The translations under genes and the position numbers were made by a program. Below are positions 4,580 to 59,493 of a stretch of 64,000 nt of DNA, piece by piece. This DNA comes from Dictyostelium discoideum. Lineage: Eukaryota. The stretch is taken from positions 3,776,001-3,840,000 of the forward strand of contig CM000153.2 in NCBI GenBank assembly GCA_000004695.1, in the 5' to 3' direction. The notes under the pieces are model-generated. The model searched no databases and was not told the origin of the DNA. It saw only the letters and a program-made list of their open reading frames with translations. The number at the start of each line of letters is the position of its first letter. Within the stretch, counting starts at the first letter, position 1.

Positions 4580-4967
4580 TTTAATAAATTGGTATAATAA
4601 TTCACATTTGTACTAATTTCATTTTCAATATTTATTTATTTATTTATATTTTCAATAATAGACTGCTAATGGTATGAAGGATAAAGTTAAGGAAGTTAAT
4701 CAAAATTTATTAAATCGTAATATTTATTTTGAAGCTACACCAAAATATGTTACAAGTTCAGGAAAGAAATTTCATGTTAAATTATCAATTCATTTCCCAA
4801 CATTAGGATTTATTGTTCCACAACCAATACCACCACCAATGTATCAAACAAGTTTTCAACAACCATCTTCAATTTTAACAACACCAATTTATCAATCACA
4901 AACTAACCAACAACAATACATAAATACAATTGATGAAAATCATGAACAACAATCTTTATTAAAATAG
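4014..4967 (+). CDS. Small two-TM membrane protein, paralogue B. Exons 4014..4487 and 4662..4967.
   Basis: GTATGT donor at 4488 and AATAG acceptor at 4660-4661, phase 0. Conserved blocks shared with paralogue A: GVMSAKEYINYINDFNKIV versus HVLTCREYTKSVEQLNSTI; a TM hairpin ending in RK before the intron; KKFHVKLSIHFP versus REYSISLHLIYP after the intron. Confidence 0.5.
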
Positions 4968-5231
4968 GGTTTTTGAAATCCTCTCTTGGATATATTTAAT
5001 TAAAAAAAAAAAAAAAAAAACTTTTGAGAATTACAAATCGTACTCTTTCAAAAGATTCATAAAAATAAAATAAAAAATTTTAAAAATAGAATTTATTTTC
5101 TTTAAAAATTTAATTATAGTTATTGTTTAATTTTAGAAAAACATTTAATTTTTTTTTATTTATACATATTACTGAATAAATAATTTATATAAGTTAACAA
5201 CTTTATTATCAATTTATACCTTTTTTTTTTT

Positions 5232-11680
<6,449 letters not shown>

Positions 11681-26564: not shown

Positions 26565-27078
26565 TTATTCTGAAAAAAAAAAATTTTTTTTAAATTAAAA
26601 AAAAAAATTAATTTTAATATATTAAAAATTTAATAAAATAAAATAAAATTAAATTAAATAAAATTTAAAATAATCGATAAACAGATTATTATTATAATGA
26701 TGCGTAAATTTCAAAAAAAAAACAAAATGAAAAAACACAGTGTGCAAGATTACAAAAAAAAAAAAAGAAAAAAAATTGAAAAAAAAAAAAAATCGATAAT
26801 TATCATAATACCCATTGCAAAACTTTTTACTGGGTGGTAACATAACAAGTAATATGTCATTATCGCATTTTTAAATGATTTTCTATTATTATTATTATAA
26901 TGGTAAGTTTTATTTATTATTTTTATTTTTATTTTTTTTTTTTATTTTTATTTTTTTATCTTTTTTTTTTTTATTATTATAATAAATATATTTTTTGTAT
27001 TTTTTTATTTATATCTTTTGGATAATTAACAAGATATTAATACAATTACATTATTATAATAATAAATGTATAATTTTA

Positions 27079-27112
<34 letters not shown>

Positions 27113-27717
27113 GTATTATAAATTTTTTTTTTTTTTTTTTTTTTTTTTTGATATTTAATAATTGATATCGATTACTTTTTTTTTTTTTTTTTTTTTAATT
27201 AACCTTAAAAAAAAAATAAAAAAAAAAAAAAAAGAATGAATGAAAGAAAGAAATAAATAAAATAAAAAAAAAAAAAAAAAAAAGAAATGAAGATATTATT
27301 AAAACTTTACATTATTTTATAATTAAAAGAAATTATATTAAATTATTATTTTTTTTTTTTTTTATGATATCAAATTTTTTTTTTTTTTTTTTTTTTATAC
27401 ACAAAAATTTTATAAAAAAAAAAAAAAAAGAAAATTAAAAAAATTAAATTTAAAAAAATTGAAATTTAAATTCCCCATATCAGGGGTAACTGTTGCATGT
27501 AAAAACAAACTTATCAAAAAAAAAAAATAAAAAAATCAGGGGATGAATTTTTGACAATAGGTTGTGCCATGTGGAATTTTCGATTATACCATTTACCAGT
27601 ATATTTTGTTTTTAAATTAAAAAAATAATAAAAAAAAAAAATAAATAAATAAAAAAAAAAAAAACTAACAAAACAGGGAAATCAATTTCAAAATTTATGA
27701 TAATATTGTTTCGCTGT

Positions 27718-27753
<36 letters not shown>

Positions 27754-29085
27754 TAAAAAAAAAAATAAAAAGAAATTTGTTAATAAAAAGATATCAATTA
27801 CCTTTTTTTATTAATTACTTGTATATAGTGTATGTTCTATATACAAAAGAAATTTCTTTTCTTAATTTTTTTTTTTCTATGGTTTTTTTTTTTTTTTTTT
27901 TTTGATTTTTTTTCTTGTAAACCTTGAATTAATGCCAAACAAAAAACTTTTTTTATCAACAATTAAAAGAAGAGAAAAAAAAAAAAACTGTTTAAAAAGG
28001 GTGATGTATATTTATAATAAAGCTTAAAAAAAAAAAAAAATAAAAATAAAAAAAAAAAAAAAAATTAAAAATAAAACAAATTTTTTTATTTTAAAACAAA
28101 TCCCTAAAAGGGAAAAATTTAAAAAAATATATTTTTTTTTTTTAAAAAATTAATATTTTAGATCCCAGTGATATCCAAATATATATAACCTATAGCATAT
28201 ATATATAAATTTTTACAATTCATAATTTCATATTTTTTATTGTTTTTTTTTTATTTTTTTTTAACCATTTTATGATTTTAAAAAAAAATAATAAAAAAAA
28301 AAAAAAATAAAATAAAATAAAATAAAATAAAATTTTAAAAAGGAATAAATGTAAAATAATGAACATATGGTCTTTATAATAGTAATGGGTTAAATTATTT
28401 TTTTTTTTTTTTTCTTTTTCATTATAATTTTAATAAGTTCCTATTCGTCTTTTTATTTTAATATTAACCATATTAAACAATACCTTGTACTAATAAATTG
28501 GTTCAAGTTCACAAGCAGGTGAAAAAAAAAAAAAAAAACACCAAAATGTTAACATTGATATCAAGGAGAAAATTTGGTATTTCCTGGTAGGAGATTAGGG
28601 TGTTGGACGATATTAAAATTATAATTATAGGTTAGTTTGATTTATTCCATAGAAAAAAAAAAAGTTATTTTTTAATTTATTGCCGGGTTATGAAAATTAG
28701 CCAATAAACATTACTGAAATAGTAAAAAATATTTACCACACCATTTTTTTTTTTTTTTTTTTTGAATAATTACACTTTTACCCCTCAATTAAAATACAGA
28801 TTTGGTTTTTATCAAATGAAATAAAAAACAAATAAATTTGTATTTTTAGATTTTATTTTTAGATTTTATTAACAATTTTTTAATTTATCTCGATATTATT
28901 TTACTGTGGATAAAAACTTTTTTATGTCAATAATTTTATTTTATTGTTTTAAAAAAAGAAATGATTAAATAAATTAGTAATACATTATTAAAAATTATTA
29001 AAAAATGAATATATATTTTTATATTTGGTTATAAATTCTTTTATTATTTTTTTGTTTAAAAGAGATATTAATTTATTTATTTGTC

Positions 29086-29093
29086 TCCCACAA
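29086..29093 (+). promoter_or_regulatory. Exact Dictyostelium upstream sequence element (DUSE) match TCCCACAA. It is the only exact match I found in the intergenic DNA of this window, and it lies about 60 nt upstream of a GC-richer island (29150-29320).
   Basis: The DUSE consensus [AT]CCCA[CT]AA is known from Dictyostelium ncRNA promoters (snRNAs, class I RNAs), typically about 60 nt before the transcription start. The context is GTCTCCCACAAAAAG. Confidence 0.3.
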
Positions 29094-29569
29094 AAAGTAA
29101 AATTTAACAACATTAAAAAGTTGAAAAACGAATCGATATTTGGGAAACCCAAAAAAGACTCCATACTTTGAGATGGGAAATTTATTCTTGAGCGGCAATG
29201 ACACAATCAAAAACGATAACCTCTCAAAAATAAGTGGTGAAGTTATATTTGACACAGAACCTGTGGTACATCACTTCCCGTTTATGGCTTTAAGACCACT
29301 CGTCAAAAAAAAATTAATATGATCACAATAATTATTTAAATATAAAACTATTTAAAATAAAAATTATGGGAAAAAAAAAAAAAAAAAAAAATTATTTTCA
29401 ATTTTATTTTAAAATTTTTTTTTTTGGTTTTTAGGTTTAAATTAAGACTGGTCAAAAAAAAAAAAAAAAAAAAAGTTTTCAATTTTTTTTTTTTTTTATT
29501 TTATATTTTTTTTTTTTCAAAATTAATTAAATAATCTTTTTTTTATTCATATATATATTTTTTATAATA

Positions 29570-29600
<31 letters not shown>

Positions 29601-29603
29601 AGA

Positions 29604-55997: not shown

Positions 55998-58469
55998 TTA
56001 TAATGAAAAAGTTAAAATGATTAAAGATGAGATGAAAACGATTAAAGAAAAAGAAGGTGTTAAAAAGAATGATGAACTTGAATCAGTGGAATTTGAGGAT
56101 GAGTCAAATGATGATGTTGAGTTTGAAGAGGTAGTTGATGAAGCTGATGAAGAACCACCATAATAGAATCTACAAATATCATTCTTTGTACAAGTGAGTG
56201 GAGTTGCGAAACATGGACTTTCACAAATGAATTGAATACAGTTTTCAACCATACAACTACCATTTGTTAATGGTACACCAAGATTACATTCATTATCAAG
56301 TGCACATTGAGTAATTTTAGTTAAACTTTCTTGACATTGTAAATTGTAATTAGCAATTGGGACACATTTGGCTGTTGAAATTTCACTGCCACTTGTTGAT
56401 GATGATGTTGAATTTGATCCACTATTAGAACCACTTGAAGATAAATCACCACTAGATGATGATGGTGATGATGATGATGATGCAGTTGAATTCGATCCAC
56501 TTGAAAGCAAATCAGTAGAGTTTGAATTTGATGCACTTGATGATAGATCACCATTTGATGATGATGCAGTTGAATTTGATCCAGAATTTGATGATGAGGA
56601 AGAATTTGAAGCAGAAGATGAAGAGATAGAAGATGAAGCAGAAGATGATGAAGCAGAAGATGATGATTTATCACAAATACATTTTTCATAATCTAAGCTA
56701 CATACTGTTACATCATTTGAACAATCAGCACCAGTGATTAATTTATTACAAACACCATTGTAATCACAAACTAATCCTTGAGTTAAGTCACAATCCATTC
56801 TATTTAATAAATTGCTGTAACTTGTAAGAGTTGCATTTTCTTTAATTTTTAATGGAGTTGGATTATATAATGAACAATGTTCACCTTCTTTCTTTGTGAA
56901 TTGTCTTCTACAGTATTTAACTCTTTTACCTGGACCACTTGATGATGAAGATGTTGAAGAACCAGAAGCTGATGAAGAGCCAGAAGCTGATGAAGAACCA
57001 GAAGCTGATGAAGAACCAGAGGCTGATGAAGAACCAGAGGCTGATGAAGAACCTGATGCAGATGAAGAGCCTGAGGCTGATGAATCTGATGAGGAGGAAT
57101 TAGATGATGCAGATGATCCACTTTCTGACATTGAGTTACTTCCACTTTGAGCATCACGGAGTAATGAATTAGAATTGTCACTGTTATTACTATTGTTTGA
57201 TCCACTGTCGGATGTAGAGTTTGAACCAGAGTTGGAGTTGGAGTTTGAACCAGAGTTAGAGTTGGAGTTTGAACCAGAGTTAGAGTTGGAGTTTGAACCA
57301 GAATTAGAGTTTGAACCACTATCGGATGTAGAGTTTGAACCAGAGTTAGAGTTGGAGTTTGAACCAGAATTGGAGTTAGAGTTTGAACCAGAATTAGAAT
57401 TTGAGTTTGAACCAGAGTTAGAGTTTGAGCCAGAATTAGAATTTGAACTAGAATCAAATGAACTATCAGAGTCATCATCAGTTGGGTTAACAGAACATAT
57501 CATATCATAAGAACATTGGAAACTTGAATCACATTCATCACCTTCCTCTAACCATTCAACACATTCACCTTGATTTGGTAATGAAGAATCACAACGATAA
57601 TATTGACCGAATGAGCAAGCAGTTGTATCATAAACACCATCGATACAAATGGTTGGTGATGAACATTTATCATCTTTACAATTACCACTTGCACAATCAT
57701 CATTGGATTCACAATCTTGGCCAAAATTTAAAGTTCCTTTTTTATCTTCTTGACATGTACCATTGACACAAATTAAATCTTCAAAACAATTTGAAATTTT
57801 TCCAAACACAACAGTACAACTACCACCAACATTTACCTTTGGAACACAAGTGGCTTCACCAAAATTTGGGAATCCACTTGAACTTGAACCGCTACTTTGG
57901 CTAGAGCTTTCACTTTGACTACCACTTTGGCTTGAACTTGCACTTTGACTACCACTTTGGCTTGAGCTTTCACTTTGACTACCACTTTGGCTTGAGCTTG
58001 CACTTTGACTGCCACTTTGGCTTGAGCTTTCACTTTGGCTACCACTTTGGCTTGAGCTTGCACTTTGGCTACCACTTTGGCTTGAGTCTACACTTTGGCT
58101 ACTATTACCACTTTGGCTACCACTTTGACTACCACTTTGGCTGCCACTGTTAGCCCAAACAGGCATACAAAAGAAGCCTTGTTCACACATGTCGACTTTT
58201 GTTAAATCAAATCTTTAGAAATTGGAAAAATTAAAATCTTGAATGTTTCTTTTTTATTTTTTTATTTTTTTTTTTCAAAAGGTTTAGTATACTTACGAAC
58301 AGGGTGCATTAACAGGAGCATCACATTGATAATCAATACAAATTGGTGGTAAACCAATACTATCACTACTACTATGGCTACCACTACCTTCATGACTATC
58401 ACAAGATAATACTTGAGGAAGATAGTTATTTGATAAAAGTAAAATTAAAGTTGATAATAATAATTTCAT
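55998..58469 (-). CDS. Secreted, probably GPI-anchored, Ser/Gly/Asn-rich modular protein with Cys-rich (EGF-like) modules. Exons 58469..58297 (signal peptide MKLLLSTLILLLSNNYLPQVLSC) and 58203..55998.
   Basis: Signal peptide, GTAAGT donor at 58296, CTAAAG acceptor at 58205-58204 (phase 2). Three Cys-rich modules are separated by distinct repeat arrays (SGSQS)n, (SGSNSNSN)n and (SGSSSA)n. The C-terminus ...SSSFFLTPSFSLIVFISSLIILTFSL* is a typical GPI attachment signal. Confidence 0.55.
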
Positions 58470-59493
58470 ATTTTAAATGGTTTTTGAAATAAAAAGGAAA
58501 AAGAAGAAGATTGAAATTTAAAGATAAATATGTGGTTGAACATAAAATAAATATATGAAAAATATAATTTTTTTTTTTTTTTTTTTTTTAATTGATAATA
58601 AATATAAATAATATTTATTTATATTTTTTATTATTTAATTAAATAAATAAATAGTTGATTATTGTTGAATGGTTTGATTAAAATTTTTTTTTTTGTCCTT
58701 TTTATAGTTTTTTTTTTTTTTAGATTAAAATTTGATGATAAACATTTTTTTAGTTTTTTTAAGTAAAATCTTAATTTTAAAATGAAAATCACATTATTAT
58801 TAATAATGGATAAGGGACAGTCGTTTTTTTGTTCTTTTTGTGTGAAAGTTATTTATAATCAAAGAATCAAATAAAAATTAATTATTATAAATCGAATCAT
58901 TTTAAATTAAAGGGTTTTTTTTTTTTTTTTTTAAAATAAAAAAGTAAAAACGATGGGGATTTCACTTTTTTTTTATTTGTCAAAAAAAAAAAAAGGCAAA
59001 AATGTATTTTCTCATAAAATTATTTTTGGAAAAAAAAAAAAAAAAAAAAAAAAAATAAATAAAAATAAAAATAAAATAAAAAAAACTTAAAACTGGTTTT
59101 ATTATAATATTTAAAATCAAATAATATAAAATTCATACTCATTTATCTATTTATATTTTATTTATTTTAAATAAAATAATTTCTTTAAAACTAATTTTTT
59201 AAATAAAAATAATAATAATAATAATAATAATAAAATCCAATTAAAAAAAATTAAAATAAAAATACAAACATGAGATTTTATAGAGTAAAATTGAAATAAT
59301 ATTTTTTTTTGGAAATAAAATACTGTATTTTATAAATATTTGTTTAAATTTTTTAATTCTTAAAATCTCATTTTGTTGAGAAGAGAGGTTTTGTTTTAAT
59401 TTTTTTTATTTTTATTTTTTTTATTTTTTTTTATTTTTTTTATTTTTTTATTTAACCCATTTCTGAAGTTTGGAGTGTCAGCATGAATTTTTT

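Follow-up and report, generated by a model that had tools for sequence, protein, structure and literature searches.

A candidate minus-strand RNA gene with a DUSE promoter, conserved beside the alanine aminotransferase gene of social amoebae

Why should a block of comparatively GC-rich DNA lie within an A/T-rich intergenic spacer, and what, if anything, is read from it? The question is raised by the interval between the alanine aminotransferase gene (ALT) and vps53 (26565-29603, ~3 kb, mostly 3-20% GC) in the 64,000 nt of Dictyostelium discoideum DNA analysed here (the window). [quoted passage not shown] The spacer, the block (GC 0.31-0.38 at about 29140-29305) and the exact match are all present. 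Calculated over 150-nt windows, the GC content of the island peaks at 0.387, the top value outside long open frames in the 64 kb, and the island is the sole non-low-complexity block of the 3-kb spacer that can be aligned to D. purpureum. Another GC island of the window, at 58229-58471, corresponds to a signal-peptide exon. With regard to a repeat or transposon origin, the block is unique, no copies being found elsewhere in the window, and no terminal inverted repeats surround it beyond the DUSE 8-mers themselves; a tRNA scan yielded no tRNA. The second of these 8-mers, TCCCATAA at 29371-29364 on the minus strand, was absent from the preliminary description. By itself, the TCCCACAA 8-mer occurs at chance frequency (2 copies vs 1.77 expected), and the degenerate form WCCCAYAA is found 10 times vs 9.35 expected.

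The comparative evidence presented below makes it likely that the locus is an unannotated, independently transcribed small ncRNA gene of ~180 nt, located on the minus strand and driven by a DUSE promoter. The earlier proposal of a small ncRNA with a DUSE promoter, outside the snRNA and Class I families, is thereby retained, with its strand, promoter and boundaries replaced. The predicted RNA is structured and conserved across social amoebae, and no catalogued RNA family matched it. Its features, in the order of minus-strand transcription and followed by two plus-strand features, are these:

29364-29371, minus strand: DUSE promoter element TCCCATAA, ending 60 nt upstream of GACGAG (29304)
29305-29363, minus strand: promoter spacer of 59 nt between DUSE and putative start, AT-rich (GC 0.07) and poorly conserved
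29124-29304, minus strand: RNA body, ~181 nt, both ends predicted
29295-29301, minus strand: P1 5' strand, GAGUGGU, partner 29190-29196
29289-29294, minus strand: 5' side of internal loop, CUUAAA; CUUAA in 7/8 species, CUUUGAA in D. firmibasis
29280-29288, minus strand: P2 5' strand, GCCAUAAAC, partner 29203-29214
29236-29279, minus strand: P3, long hairpin with apical stem CACAG/CUGUG
29223-29234, minus strand: P4, mini-hairpin (4 bp predicted) or Sm-site-like tract, CUUAUUUUUGAG
29203-29214, minus strand: P2 3' strand, GUUUUUG-AUU-GU with a 3-nt bulge, from the consensus structure
29197-29202, minus strand: 3' side of internal loop, GUCAUU; GUCAU invariant in 8/8 species
29190-29196, minus strand: P1 3' strand, GCCGCUC, next to a conserved AAGA (GAGA in A. 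subglobosum)
29130-29161, minus strand: 3' stem-loop, GAGUC/GAUUC (29157-29161 with 29130-29134) enclosing UUUGGG-UUU-CCCAAA (29139-29153)
29124-29128, minus strand: U5 tract abutting the 3' stem-loop, candidate 3' end
29075-29123, minus strand: 3' flank, conserved within the D. discoideum species complex, conservation ending at ~29075
29086-29093, plus strand: TCCCACAA, within the conserved 3' flank, UUGUGGGA in the RNA sense
29140-29322, plus strand: 60-codon ORF, antisense to the RNA, open in D. discoideum only

Transcription would begin at ~29304, 60 nt downstream of the DUSE at 29371-29364, a 5' end placed by the DUSE spacing and by where P1 begins, and would end at ~29124, placed from the U5 tract that follows the terminal stem-loop. 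Over the ~180 nt between these predicted ends the fold is conserved and consists of two domains. P1 would close the 5' domain, followed by the CUUAAR/GUCAU internal loop and then by P2 with two apical hairpins; a poorly conserved linker of 25-35 nt would lead to the 3' stem-loop.

Absence of the block from related species had been named at the outset as evidence against an ncRNA, and such species do conserve it. Orthologous loci were found through a search for ALT in seven other dictyostelid species (nine other assemblies), with a single copy at each locus examined. In three D. discoideum assemblies and in D. citrinum, D. dimigraforme, D. firmibasis, D. purpureum and P. violaceum the block is a neighbour of ALT, and its linkage to this gene extends over groups 2 and 4 of the Dictyostelia as other neighbours change: vps53 is inverted in P. 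violaceum and not nearby in group 2, and the block persists in both. A search with the VPS53 N-terminal protein sequence missed the dictyostelids, its Logan match (L001) belonging to an unrelated GC-rich organism. Among the three D. discoideum-type assemblies the RNA block is 100% identical and the rest of the spacers 86% identical; the segment 29310-29075 contains one substitution, and the alignable flanks differ by ~4%. A covariance model trained on three group 4 species only, and used to search 247 kb on both strands, scores 135 bits on the window and recovers all orthologues, including those of A. subglobosum (E = 0.003) and H. album (E = 0.2, 16.9 bits). The H. album score is weak alone, so that this assignment rests on position, DUSE and P1/P2 pairing. 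With filters off, the model detected no credible copy in the parts of the T. lacteum (group 3) and C. fasciculata (group 1) genomes that lie up to 10 kb from ALT, and pattern scans of metagenomes for further homologues gave 0 matches.

The strand was assigned to minus on the grounds that a conserved DUSE is present solely on that strand and that its consensus fold is the stronger one (-30.8 kcal/mol vs -18.5 on the plus strand). A DUSE typically precedes the transcription start by about 60 nt (PMC7919456, PMC3188802). D. discoideum, D. citrinum, D. dimigraforme and D. firmibasis share an identical minus-strand element, TCCCATAA, which has equivalents in D. purpureum, H. album and A. subglobosum (AACCATAA) and in P. 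violaceum (ACCCACAA). In all five lineages, covering groups 2 and 4, CUUAA(G/A)(A/G)CC (CUUAARRCC) is preceded 63-69 nt upstream by a DUSE-like motif, for which the chance of occurrence at that distance is 0.1-0.6% per lineage. Within the structure, 35 cells are G·U and 0 are A·C on the minus strand, and on the plus strand all 35 turn into A·C mismatches; this asymmetry is weak and biased evidence, since the structure itself was predicted on the minus strand. Folding of the single sequence is no better than that of shuffles for either strand (z = -0.86 for plus, -1.15 for minus).

The plus-strand TCCCACAA is probably not a promoter, to judge from its distribution. D. discoideum and D. firmibasis retain the motif; it is mutated to TCCCACTA in D. 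citrinum and to CCCCACCA in D. dimigraforme, and absent from D. purpureum; on the minus-strand model it lies 31-38 nt past the likely 3' end, downstream of the gene. The arrangement first put forward, a plus-strand ncRNA of ~170 nt transcribed from TCCCACAA with a start near 29150-29157, draws on the exact motif, from which the left edge of the island is 57-64 nt downstream, on the retention of this motif in D. firmibasis, and on a would-be start, AAGACUCCAUACUUU, which we take to resemble the 5' end of human U3 snoRNA. Against it stand the loss of the motif in the other relatives and the presence of the conserved DUSE at the opposite side of the island in five lineages; moreover, the plus-strand consensus fold is 12 kcal/mol weaker with its 35 wobble cells converted to A·C, and this strand has neither a T run nor a conserved 3' structure. 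Neither D. purpureum nor P. violaceum conserves the U3-like end, and a U3 snoRNA starting there was rejected on this ground, together with the lack of U3 boxes and of any match to U3 models. Overall, we regard a plus-strand gene as highly improbable.

Both elements might instead be active in D. discoideum, giving convergent overlap of the minus-strand RNA with a lineage-specific antisense transcript that acts as a regulator or forms dsRNA. DUSE matches do occur on both flanks, each ~60 nt from one edge of the island, a relaxed DUSE-like motif falls in a given 15-nt window with a chance of only ~0.35%, and conservation within the species complex covers 29075-29123, the segment with the plus-strand motif. 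This scenario nevertheless appears unlikely: two species among the nearest relatives do not preserve the motif, the island 'edge' was set post hoc, and conservation extends over the stretch from TCCCACAA to the would-be start, which is not the case for the real promoter spacer. Such conservation better fits a 3' flank or extension of the minus-strand gene. The flank, which is partly alignable to D. purpureum (CAUGUUG..AAAUUAAAC..ACAAAC), may be a 3'-end formation signal or an extension of the RNA.

The comparison with other dictyostelids suggested in the preliminary description reveals a conserved fold with compensatory pairs. Over the 5-species alignment, 89% of the cells are paired (75% in shuffles, 34-52% in slid controls), and 17 pairs have changed on both sides vs 6.9 expected, a number reached by 0/500 shuffles. 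The values are similar for a MAFFT alignment of six group 4 species that was not fitted to the structure: 88% paired, and 16 covarying pairs vs 6.2 expected (0/500 shuffles). Changes on both sides affect 5/7 pairs of P1, in which 97% of cells are paired over five lineages (GAGUGGU/GCCGCUC in D. discoideum, GGGUGCU/AGCGCCC in P. violaceum, GAGUAGU/ACUGCUC in A. subglobosum, UACGGA/UCCGUA in H. album); in D. firmibasis a G->A change turns the conserved U·G of this helix into U-A. The internal loop is not absolutely fixed, as CUUAA is lost in D. firmibasis. Compensatory changes are found in 5/7 pairs of the inner 7-pair helix of P2 (91% of cells paired, 95.8% on the MAFFT alignment). The internal complementarity remarked on earlier (CCTGTGGTACATCACTTCC, on the other strand) belongs to the conserved hairpin P3, whose apical stem has become CACUA/UAGUG in D. 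purpureum through double-sided changes at two pairs; the hairpin at this position is shorter in group 2 species. The outer helix of the 3' stem-loop varies in compensatory fashion to GAAUC/GGUUC in D. citrinum and GGUUA/UAAUC in D. purpureum, as does the P. violaceum stem-loop (CCUC/GAGG with CCAAAG/CUUUGG); in H. album, AUGUCA/UGACAU encloses CUUGGA-GAAA-UCCAAG.

These patterns also bear on whether the block is a conserved DNA regulatory element, i.e. an enhancer or promoter module for ALT or vps53, rather than an RNA gene. The linkage to ALT, maintained in groups 2 and 4 despite changing neighbours, would be in keeping with such a role. Yet DNA-binding sites do not require several helices to be preserved by compensatory double substitutions, nor an ncRNA promoter motif at its canonical distance in five lineages. 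In addition, A. subglobosum has the block in reversed orientation with respect to ALT, and the spacing from ALT varies between <100 nt and 2.6 kb. A regulatory DNA element is thus very unlikely.

A coding function was considered for the plus strand, either as a small-protein gene (49-60-aa ORF, 29140/29173-29322) or as the 5' exon or UTR of vps53. The 60-codon ORF at 29140-29322, earlier said to lack coding character, does exist, covers the entire island (by rough estimate, a ~7% chance for one of six frames), has a codon score at the 13th percentile of true coding chunks, and gave a database match with E = 2.5e-6. It appears spurious all the same. The match is a repeat-summation artefact made up of eight weak matches to one YWTD repeat unit, and a Pfam search of the ORF gave no match. 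The frame is open only in D. discoideum, the orthologues having 1-7 stops in every antisense frame and interspecies indels that are not multiples of three. An origin as vps53 5' UTR or first exon, raised in advance as an exclusion test, is not supported either: no GTAAGT-type donor was seen in the block, which persists where vps53 is inverted (P. violaceum) or not nearby (group 2). The probability of a coding explanation is close to negligible.

For the minus-strand RNA gene, Pol II is more likely than Pol III as the polymerase, considering that U5-U6 runs are conserved within the body, that the group 2 orthologues (n=2) have no oligo-T run, and that a TATA-like element has no fixed position. 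The promoter spacer contains an A/T-rich TTTAAATAA-like stretch around -35, and reading of the sequences of P. violaceum, H. album and A. subglobosum found no TATA-like element at a constant position. The 3' U tract is U5 in D. citrinum and D. dimigraforme and U4 in D. firmibasis, and on reading the sequences no T run of >=4 was seen along either group 2 orthologue or after the P. violaceum 3' stem-loop. Alternatively, the U5/U6 runs could act in Pol III termination and yield shorter products.

To our knowledge, few lineage-wide ncRNAs of Dictyostelia have been recognised beyond the universal ones and the Class I family. The locus adds a candidate structured RNA of ~180 nt with an snRNA-type promoter, clear compensatory evolution and no Rfam family, conserved on both sides of the deepest split among the species sampled (groups 2 and 4). 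P1, P2 and the CUUAAR/GUCAU loop are under strong constraint, as would be expected if the RNA had a specific protein partner and a conserved role in the cell. In a tractable model organism, it can be targeted directly by knock-out and RNP purification. Scanning for a DUSE next to a GC island can find real genes, and assignment of strand and promoter requires comparative data. The covariance models (R1, R2) can be applied to whole amoebozoan genomes. The locus may already be listed as a candidate in Aspegren 2004, Hinas 2006, Larsson 2008 or dictyBase; strings of the block sequence were not found in the full texts searched or in the searched supplements of Dictyostelium ncRNA papers.

How does the predicted RNA compare with known families? 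The proposed Rfam/Infernal check assigned it to none: Rfam 15 gave no match in any species for the window and the orthologues, at gathering or at permissive E-values, beyond chance-level hits to RAGATH-35, RAGATH-33, CRISPR-DR27, SNORD11, SNORD46, snopsi18S-1377 and Antizyme_FSE. Conserved snoRNA boxes C/D (RUGAUGA, CUGA), H (ANANNA), ACA or U3 A'/A/B/C were found on neither strand, and snoRNA models matched at chance level only (E 4-8). Complementarity of CUUAAGACC to ALT mRNA was dismissed, the sole match being an inverted copy in H. album.

It is tempting to speculate that the locus supplies the missing RNA of an RNP machine known in Dictyostelia from its proteins only, with telomerase as leading candidate and otherwise a vault- or 7SK-like particle, although we consider this a long shot. 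Ciliate telomerase RNAs of 150-200 nt possess a closing helix, a terminal stem-loop, a U tract and GUCA(U) beside a helix, and the RNA described here resembles them in size and in all these elements, its GUCA(U) being invariant. D. discoideum chromosome ends are atypical. Telomerase leads because TERT is present in Dictyostelium and its telomerase RNA is not known (bioRxiv 10.1101/556977). The telomeric repeats of D. firmibasis are GGGGAGAGACA and GAGGAGAGAGTCCCTTTTTTT (PMC11193728); tested against these and A-G(1-8) only, the longest template matches in five species were 4-7 nt, no better than in shuffles, whereas a telomerase template of ~1.5 telomeric repeats would be expected. D. discoideum and D. 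firmibasis do not have the same candidate single-stranded motif, and no pseudoknot was identified in the RNA. With 7SK, Y and vault RNAs the candidate shares a small structured form, an upstream snRNA-type promoter element and, within the D. discoideum complex, a U tract after the 3' hairpin. It differs from 7SK (about 300 nt, GAUC-GAUC 5' hairpin) in length and in having no paired GAUC, and from vault and Y RNAs, with their 5'/3' panhandle, in that its 5' end pairs internally and leaves a tail of >=60 nt. The box A/box B of vault RNAs was not found conserved on reading the sequences, the sequences of group 2 (UGUUCGGGUCA) and group 4 (UGAUUGUGUCA) both departing from GGTTCGANNCC; the group 2 orthologues also differ from all three families in having no oligo-T terminator.

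The closest parallels are with DUSE-dependent ncRNAs and snRNAs. Like the former, the locus combines [AT]CCCA[CT]AA (a CC variant in group 2) at ~60 nt from the start (PMC7919456, PMC3188802) with a GC-rich body in AT-rich intergenic DNA and conservation across dictyostelid groups. Class I RNAs, in contrast, are 42-65 nt long, a third of the size predicted here, and carry CCUUACAGCAA by the 5'/3' terminal stem; this 11-nt motif is missing from the block, as noted before, even with <=2 mismatches allowed. Both snRNAs and Class I RNAs form multigene families, unlike the one copy per examined locus. The lack of resemblance to U1, U2, U4, U5 and U6 was borne out by covariance models, which together with those for U11, U12, U4atac and U6atac gave no match at E <= 10 to the window or to the orthologues of H. 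album, P. violaceum and A. subglobosum; no spliceosomal snRNA model reached its gathering score in 193 kb. Nor does the RNA carry any functional motif of a known snRNA. An Sm site is a single-stranded RAU4-6GR located between stems; AUUUUUGA at ~29224-29231 fits this consensus and is predicted to be paired (P4), and its counterparts CUUUGUGG in D. purpureum and AUUGUGA in P. violaceum are degenerate, with none clear in group 2. The Sm-like tract differs further from that of Sm-class snRNAs in lying within the multiloop enclosed by P1/P2. As in U4 and U5, the 5' domain of the predicted RNA is structured and has internal loops, part of the molecule is single-stranded and the 3' end bears a terminal stem-loop; the promoter, too, is of the snRNA type, and group 4 species carry the AUUUUUGA-like tract. 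The RNA may serve as a stable snRNA-type RNP scaffold, with the internal loop as its main protein-binding platform.

The GC-richer block in the spacer between the alanine aminotransferase gene (ALT) and vps53 is probably an RNA gene on the minus strand. Much of the preliminary description of this spacer was borne out. Very AT-rich DNA fills the approx. 3 kb between the starts of ALT (26564) and vps53 (29604), the GC content of the block (approx. [quoted passage not shown] In 150-nt windows, the GC peak of this island (0.387) is the highest outside long open frames in the entire 64 kb. The island ranked second, 58229-58471, is not an ncRNA but a signal-peptide first exon (MKLLLSTLILLL...), joined through a GTAAGT intron to a 730-aa Ser/Asn-rich ORF (55998-58190, minus strand). 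The 8-mer TCCCACAA occurs at chance frequency (2 copies vs 1.77 expected), as does the degenerate form WCCCAYAA (10 matches vs 9.35 expected). Single-sequence folding of the block was no better than that of shuffles on either strand (z = -0.86 and -1.15), a repeat search yielded no second copy in the window, and a tRNA scan found none.

Orthologous loci were located by an ALT protein search, with D. firmibasis, D. citrinum and D. dimigraforme added from the 90% cluster of the top match. When the vps53 N-terminus was used in a word-indexed protein search, zero dictyostelids were recovered though their VPS53 genes are in the collection, so that a negative there does not equal absence. The ALT loci compared were those of two other D. 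discoideum-labelled assemblies, the three species just named, D. purpureum, P. violaceum and, further out, H. album, A. subglobosum, T. lacteum and C. fasciculata. P. violaceum and every group 4 species share the arrangement vps53, a 2.8-3.1-kb spacer, ALT. Spacer length is thus maintained (26565-29603 in the window; 4744-7688 and 7210-10000 in the fetched ALT loci L004 and L005; also L016-L018) despite only the RNA block aligning between D. discoideum and D. purpureum. In that comparison, low-complexity sequence aside, the sole aligned part of the spacer is the island (73% over 127 nt, E = 1e-11); two other mildly GC-richer patches (27448-27623 and 28453-28700) show no conservation in D. purpureum. 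The block is also present in P. violaceum. Among three D. discoideum-type assemblies the spacer is 86% identical overall, with one substitution in 29310-29075. In GCA_054859355.1 and GCA_054859385.1, both labelled D. discoideum, spacer identity to the window is approx. 86% with gaps counted and that of ALT 99%, which suggests fast turnover of AT-rich intergenic DNA, or distinct lineages.

A covariance model (R1) built from D. discoideum, D. purpureum and P. violaceum only, and searched against both strands of 247 kb, matched beside ALT in A. subglobosum (24 bits, E = 0.003) and H. album (17 bits, E = 0.2). With an eight-species model and filters off, neither T. lacteum nor C. fasciculata yielded a copy within 10 kb of ALT. 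Throughout groups 2 and 4 (L002-L006, L008, L016-L018) the RNA gene adjoins ALT, at distances from <100 nt to 2.6 kb and with other neighbours varying; its orientation relative to ALT is constant except in A. subglobosum, and no complementarity to ALT mRNA was found. At the H. album locus (L006) a 28-nt inverted copy of the RNA 5' end (9896-9923 / 10166-10193, 96% complementary) lies 242 nt downstream on the other strand, within the range called as the ALT gene. Seen in no other species and with no DUSE within 110 nt, it may have arisen by partial inverted duplication, or may serve as a long-range pairing partner.

The block could have been coding sequence or belonged to vps53. The 60-codon ORF described earlier was found (29140-29322, plus strand) and spans the island; its codon score is ambiguous. 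It is open in D. discoideum only, every antisense frame of the orthologues contains stops, and the indels that separate species have lengths not divisible by three, in agreement with its reported lack of coding character. A Pfam search with the ORF gave no match, and its only match among 1.84 billion representative proteins is an artefact, the sum of eight weak matches to a single YWTD repeat unit. Membership of vps53 was rejected, as the block persists where vps53 is inverted (P. violaceum) or not nearby (group 2).

The preliminary description placed the gene on the plus strand, with TCCCACAA as its promoter. This motif is retained in D. firmibasis and missing from D. purpureum, with TCCCACTA in its place in D. 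citrinum and CCCCACCA in D. dimigraforme; it is probably not the promoter of the RNA gene. A degenerate scan revealed a second, overlooked DUSE, TCCCATAA, on the minus strand, with the island's right edge exactly 60 nt downstream of its end. In the window-minus sense, the motif CUUAA(G/A)(A/G)CC is preceded by a DUSE-like motif at a distance of 63-69 nt in D. discoideum, D. purpureum, P. violaceum, H. album and A. subglobosum; the promoter DNA between DUSE and RNA is not alignable. The D. discoideum complex carries TCCCATAA, P. violaceum ACCCACAA, and the other three species AACCATAA; by chance, a 15-nt window would contain such a motif with a probability of 0.1-0.6% per lineage. In published work the DUSE is described approx. 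60 nt before the start site, and group 2 has a two-C variant (PMC7919456, PMC3188802); the minus-strand motif agrees in both spacing and group 2 variant. The consensus fold (RNAalifold, three divergent group 4 sequences) also favours this strand (-30.8 kcal/mol in the minus sense vs -18.5 in the plus sense). Pairing cells include 35 G·U and 0 A·C, a bias expected because the structure was predicted on that strand, and one that agrees with the promoter evidence and the energy difference.

Proposed model of the RNA gene (window coordinates)
29371-29364, minus strand: DUSE
approx. 29304, minus strand: inferred start (GACGAG...)
29301-29295 with 29196-29190, minus strand: helix P1
29294-29289 (CUUAAA) and 29202-29197 (GUCAUU), minus strand: internal loop
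29288-29280 with 29214-29203, minus strand: helix P2
29279-29236, minus strand: hairpin P3
29234-29223, minus strand: hairpin P4 or Sm-like AUUUUUGA
29189-29162, minus strand: linker
29161-29130, minus strand: 3' stem-loop
29128-29124, minus strand: U5 tract

In the predicted fold, nucleotides just 5' of CUUAAR pair with those just 3' of an invariant GUCAU to form P1 (7 bp), the two motifs forming an internal loop. P2 (9 bp, 3-nt bulge) follows, and beyond it two apical hairpins, including P3, of which the internal complementarity noted earlier forms part; the 3' stem-loop is reached through a variable linker. P1 changes on both strands between species (GAGUGGU/GCCGCUC in D. discoideum, GGGUGUU/ACCGCCC in D. 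purpureum, GGGUGCU/AGCGCCC in P. violaceum, GAGUAGU/ACUGCUC in A. subglobosum, UACGGA/UCCGUA in H. album). In a five-species alignment fitted to the model, whose two group 2 sequences were not used in model building, 89% of cells are paired (75% in shuffles, 34-52% in slid registers), and 17 pairs changed on both sides vs 6.9 expected, a number reached by 0/500 shuffles; 5/7 pairs covary in each of P1 and P2. A MAFFT alignment of six group 4 species over the full-length structure gave 88% paired and 16 covarying pairs vs 6.2 expected (0/500 shuffles), five of them in the 3' stem-loop. The D. firmibasis copy (L016 3552-3580) carries CUUUGAACC and a UGUA insertion in place of CUUAA(G/A)(A/G)CC, the motif of seven other species, and its covariance model score is down to 93.5 bits; P1 pairing is retained, a G->A change converting U·G to U-A.

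Conserved U5, U5 and U6 runs occur within the RNA body in the D. discoideum complex. Runs of at least 4 T are missing from the full length of the H. album and A. subglobosum orthologues and from P. violaceum downstream of its 3' stem-loop, and no TATA-like element at a fixed distance was found in the less AT-rich species. Pol II is therefore favoured, and we lean towards a putative snRNA-type gene; Pol III may instead transcribe it, as a U5 tract directly follows the terminal hairpin in four close species. Past this tract, approx. 50 nt (29075-29123) are conserved in D. discoideum, D. citrinum, D. dimigraforme and D. firmibasis, conservation ending at approx. 29075. This segment contains GUGGGA, the reverse complement of the flagged DUSE core, and may either extend the RNA or be a signal by which snRNA-type genes form their 3' ends. 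In P. violaceum, GGUGGGAA is located at a similar distance beyond the gene.

Taken together, the comparative sequence evidence indicates a conserved, structured small ncRNA, apparently DUSE-driven and of a family not in Rfam. The earlier proposal of an unannotated DUSE-driven gene is retained in this form, with the strand reversed and the promoter moved to the minus-strand site. Rfam 15 gave nothing credible for the region or the window, no match in four species and none at gathering score in 193 kb, consistent with the reported lack of likeness to U1, U2, U4, U5 or U6; the Class I 11-nt motif is likewise absent. Larsson et al. 2008 reportedly combined base composition with DUSE, so a candidate list may already include this locus, which we consider possible though rather doubtful. 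Sequence strings of the block occur neither in the full texts open to searching nor in the supplements of four Dictyostelium ncRNA papers. Recent genome annotations depend on Rfam (PMC11193728; D. giganteum preprint) and would miss the locus.

Among known RNAs, a snoRNA was rejected on inspection (no C/D or H/ACA boxes), as was U3, the U3-like plus-strand start not being conserved. The topology resembles that of ciliate-type telomerase RNA, but no segment is complementary beyond chance to D. firmibasis telomeric repeats (PMC11193728) or to A-G(1-8). The RNA is unlike Y or vault RNA since it has no 5'/3' panhandle, and unlike vault RNA or 7SK since neither a conserved box A or B nor paired GAUC motifs were seen. 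The reading with the most support is an snRNA-type RNP scaffold in which a protein would bind the conserved internal loop. The gene would be of a known kind, and its RNA family new.
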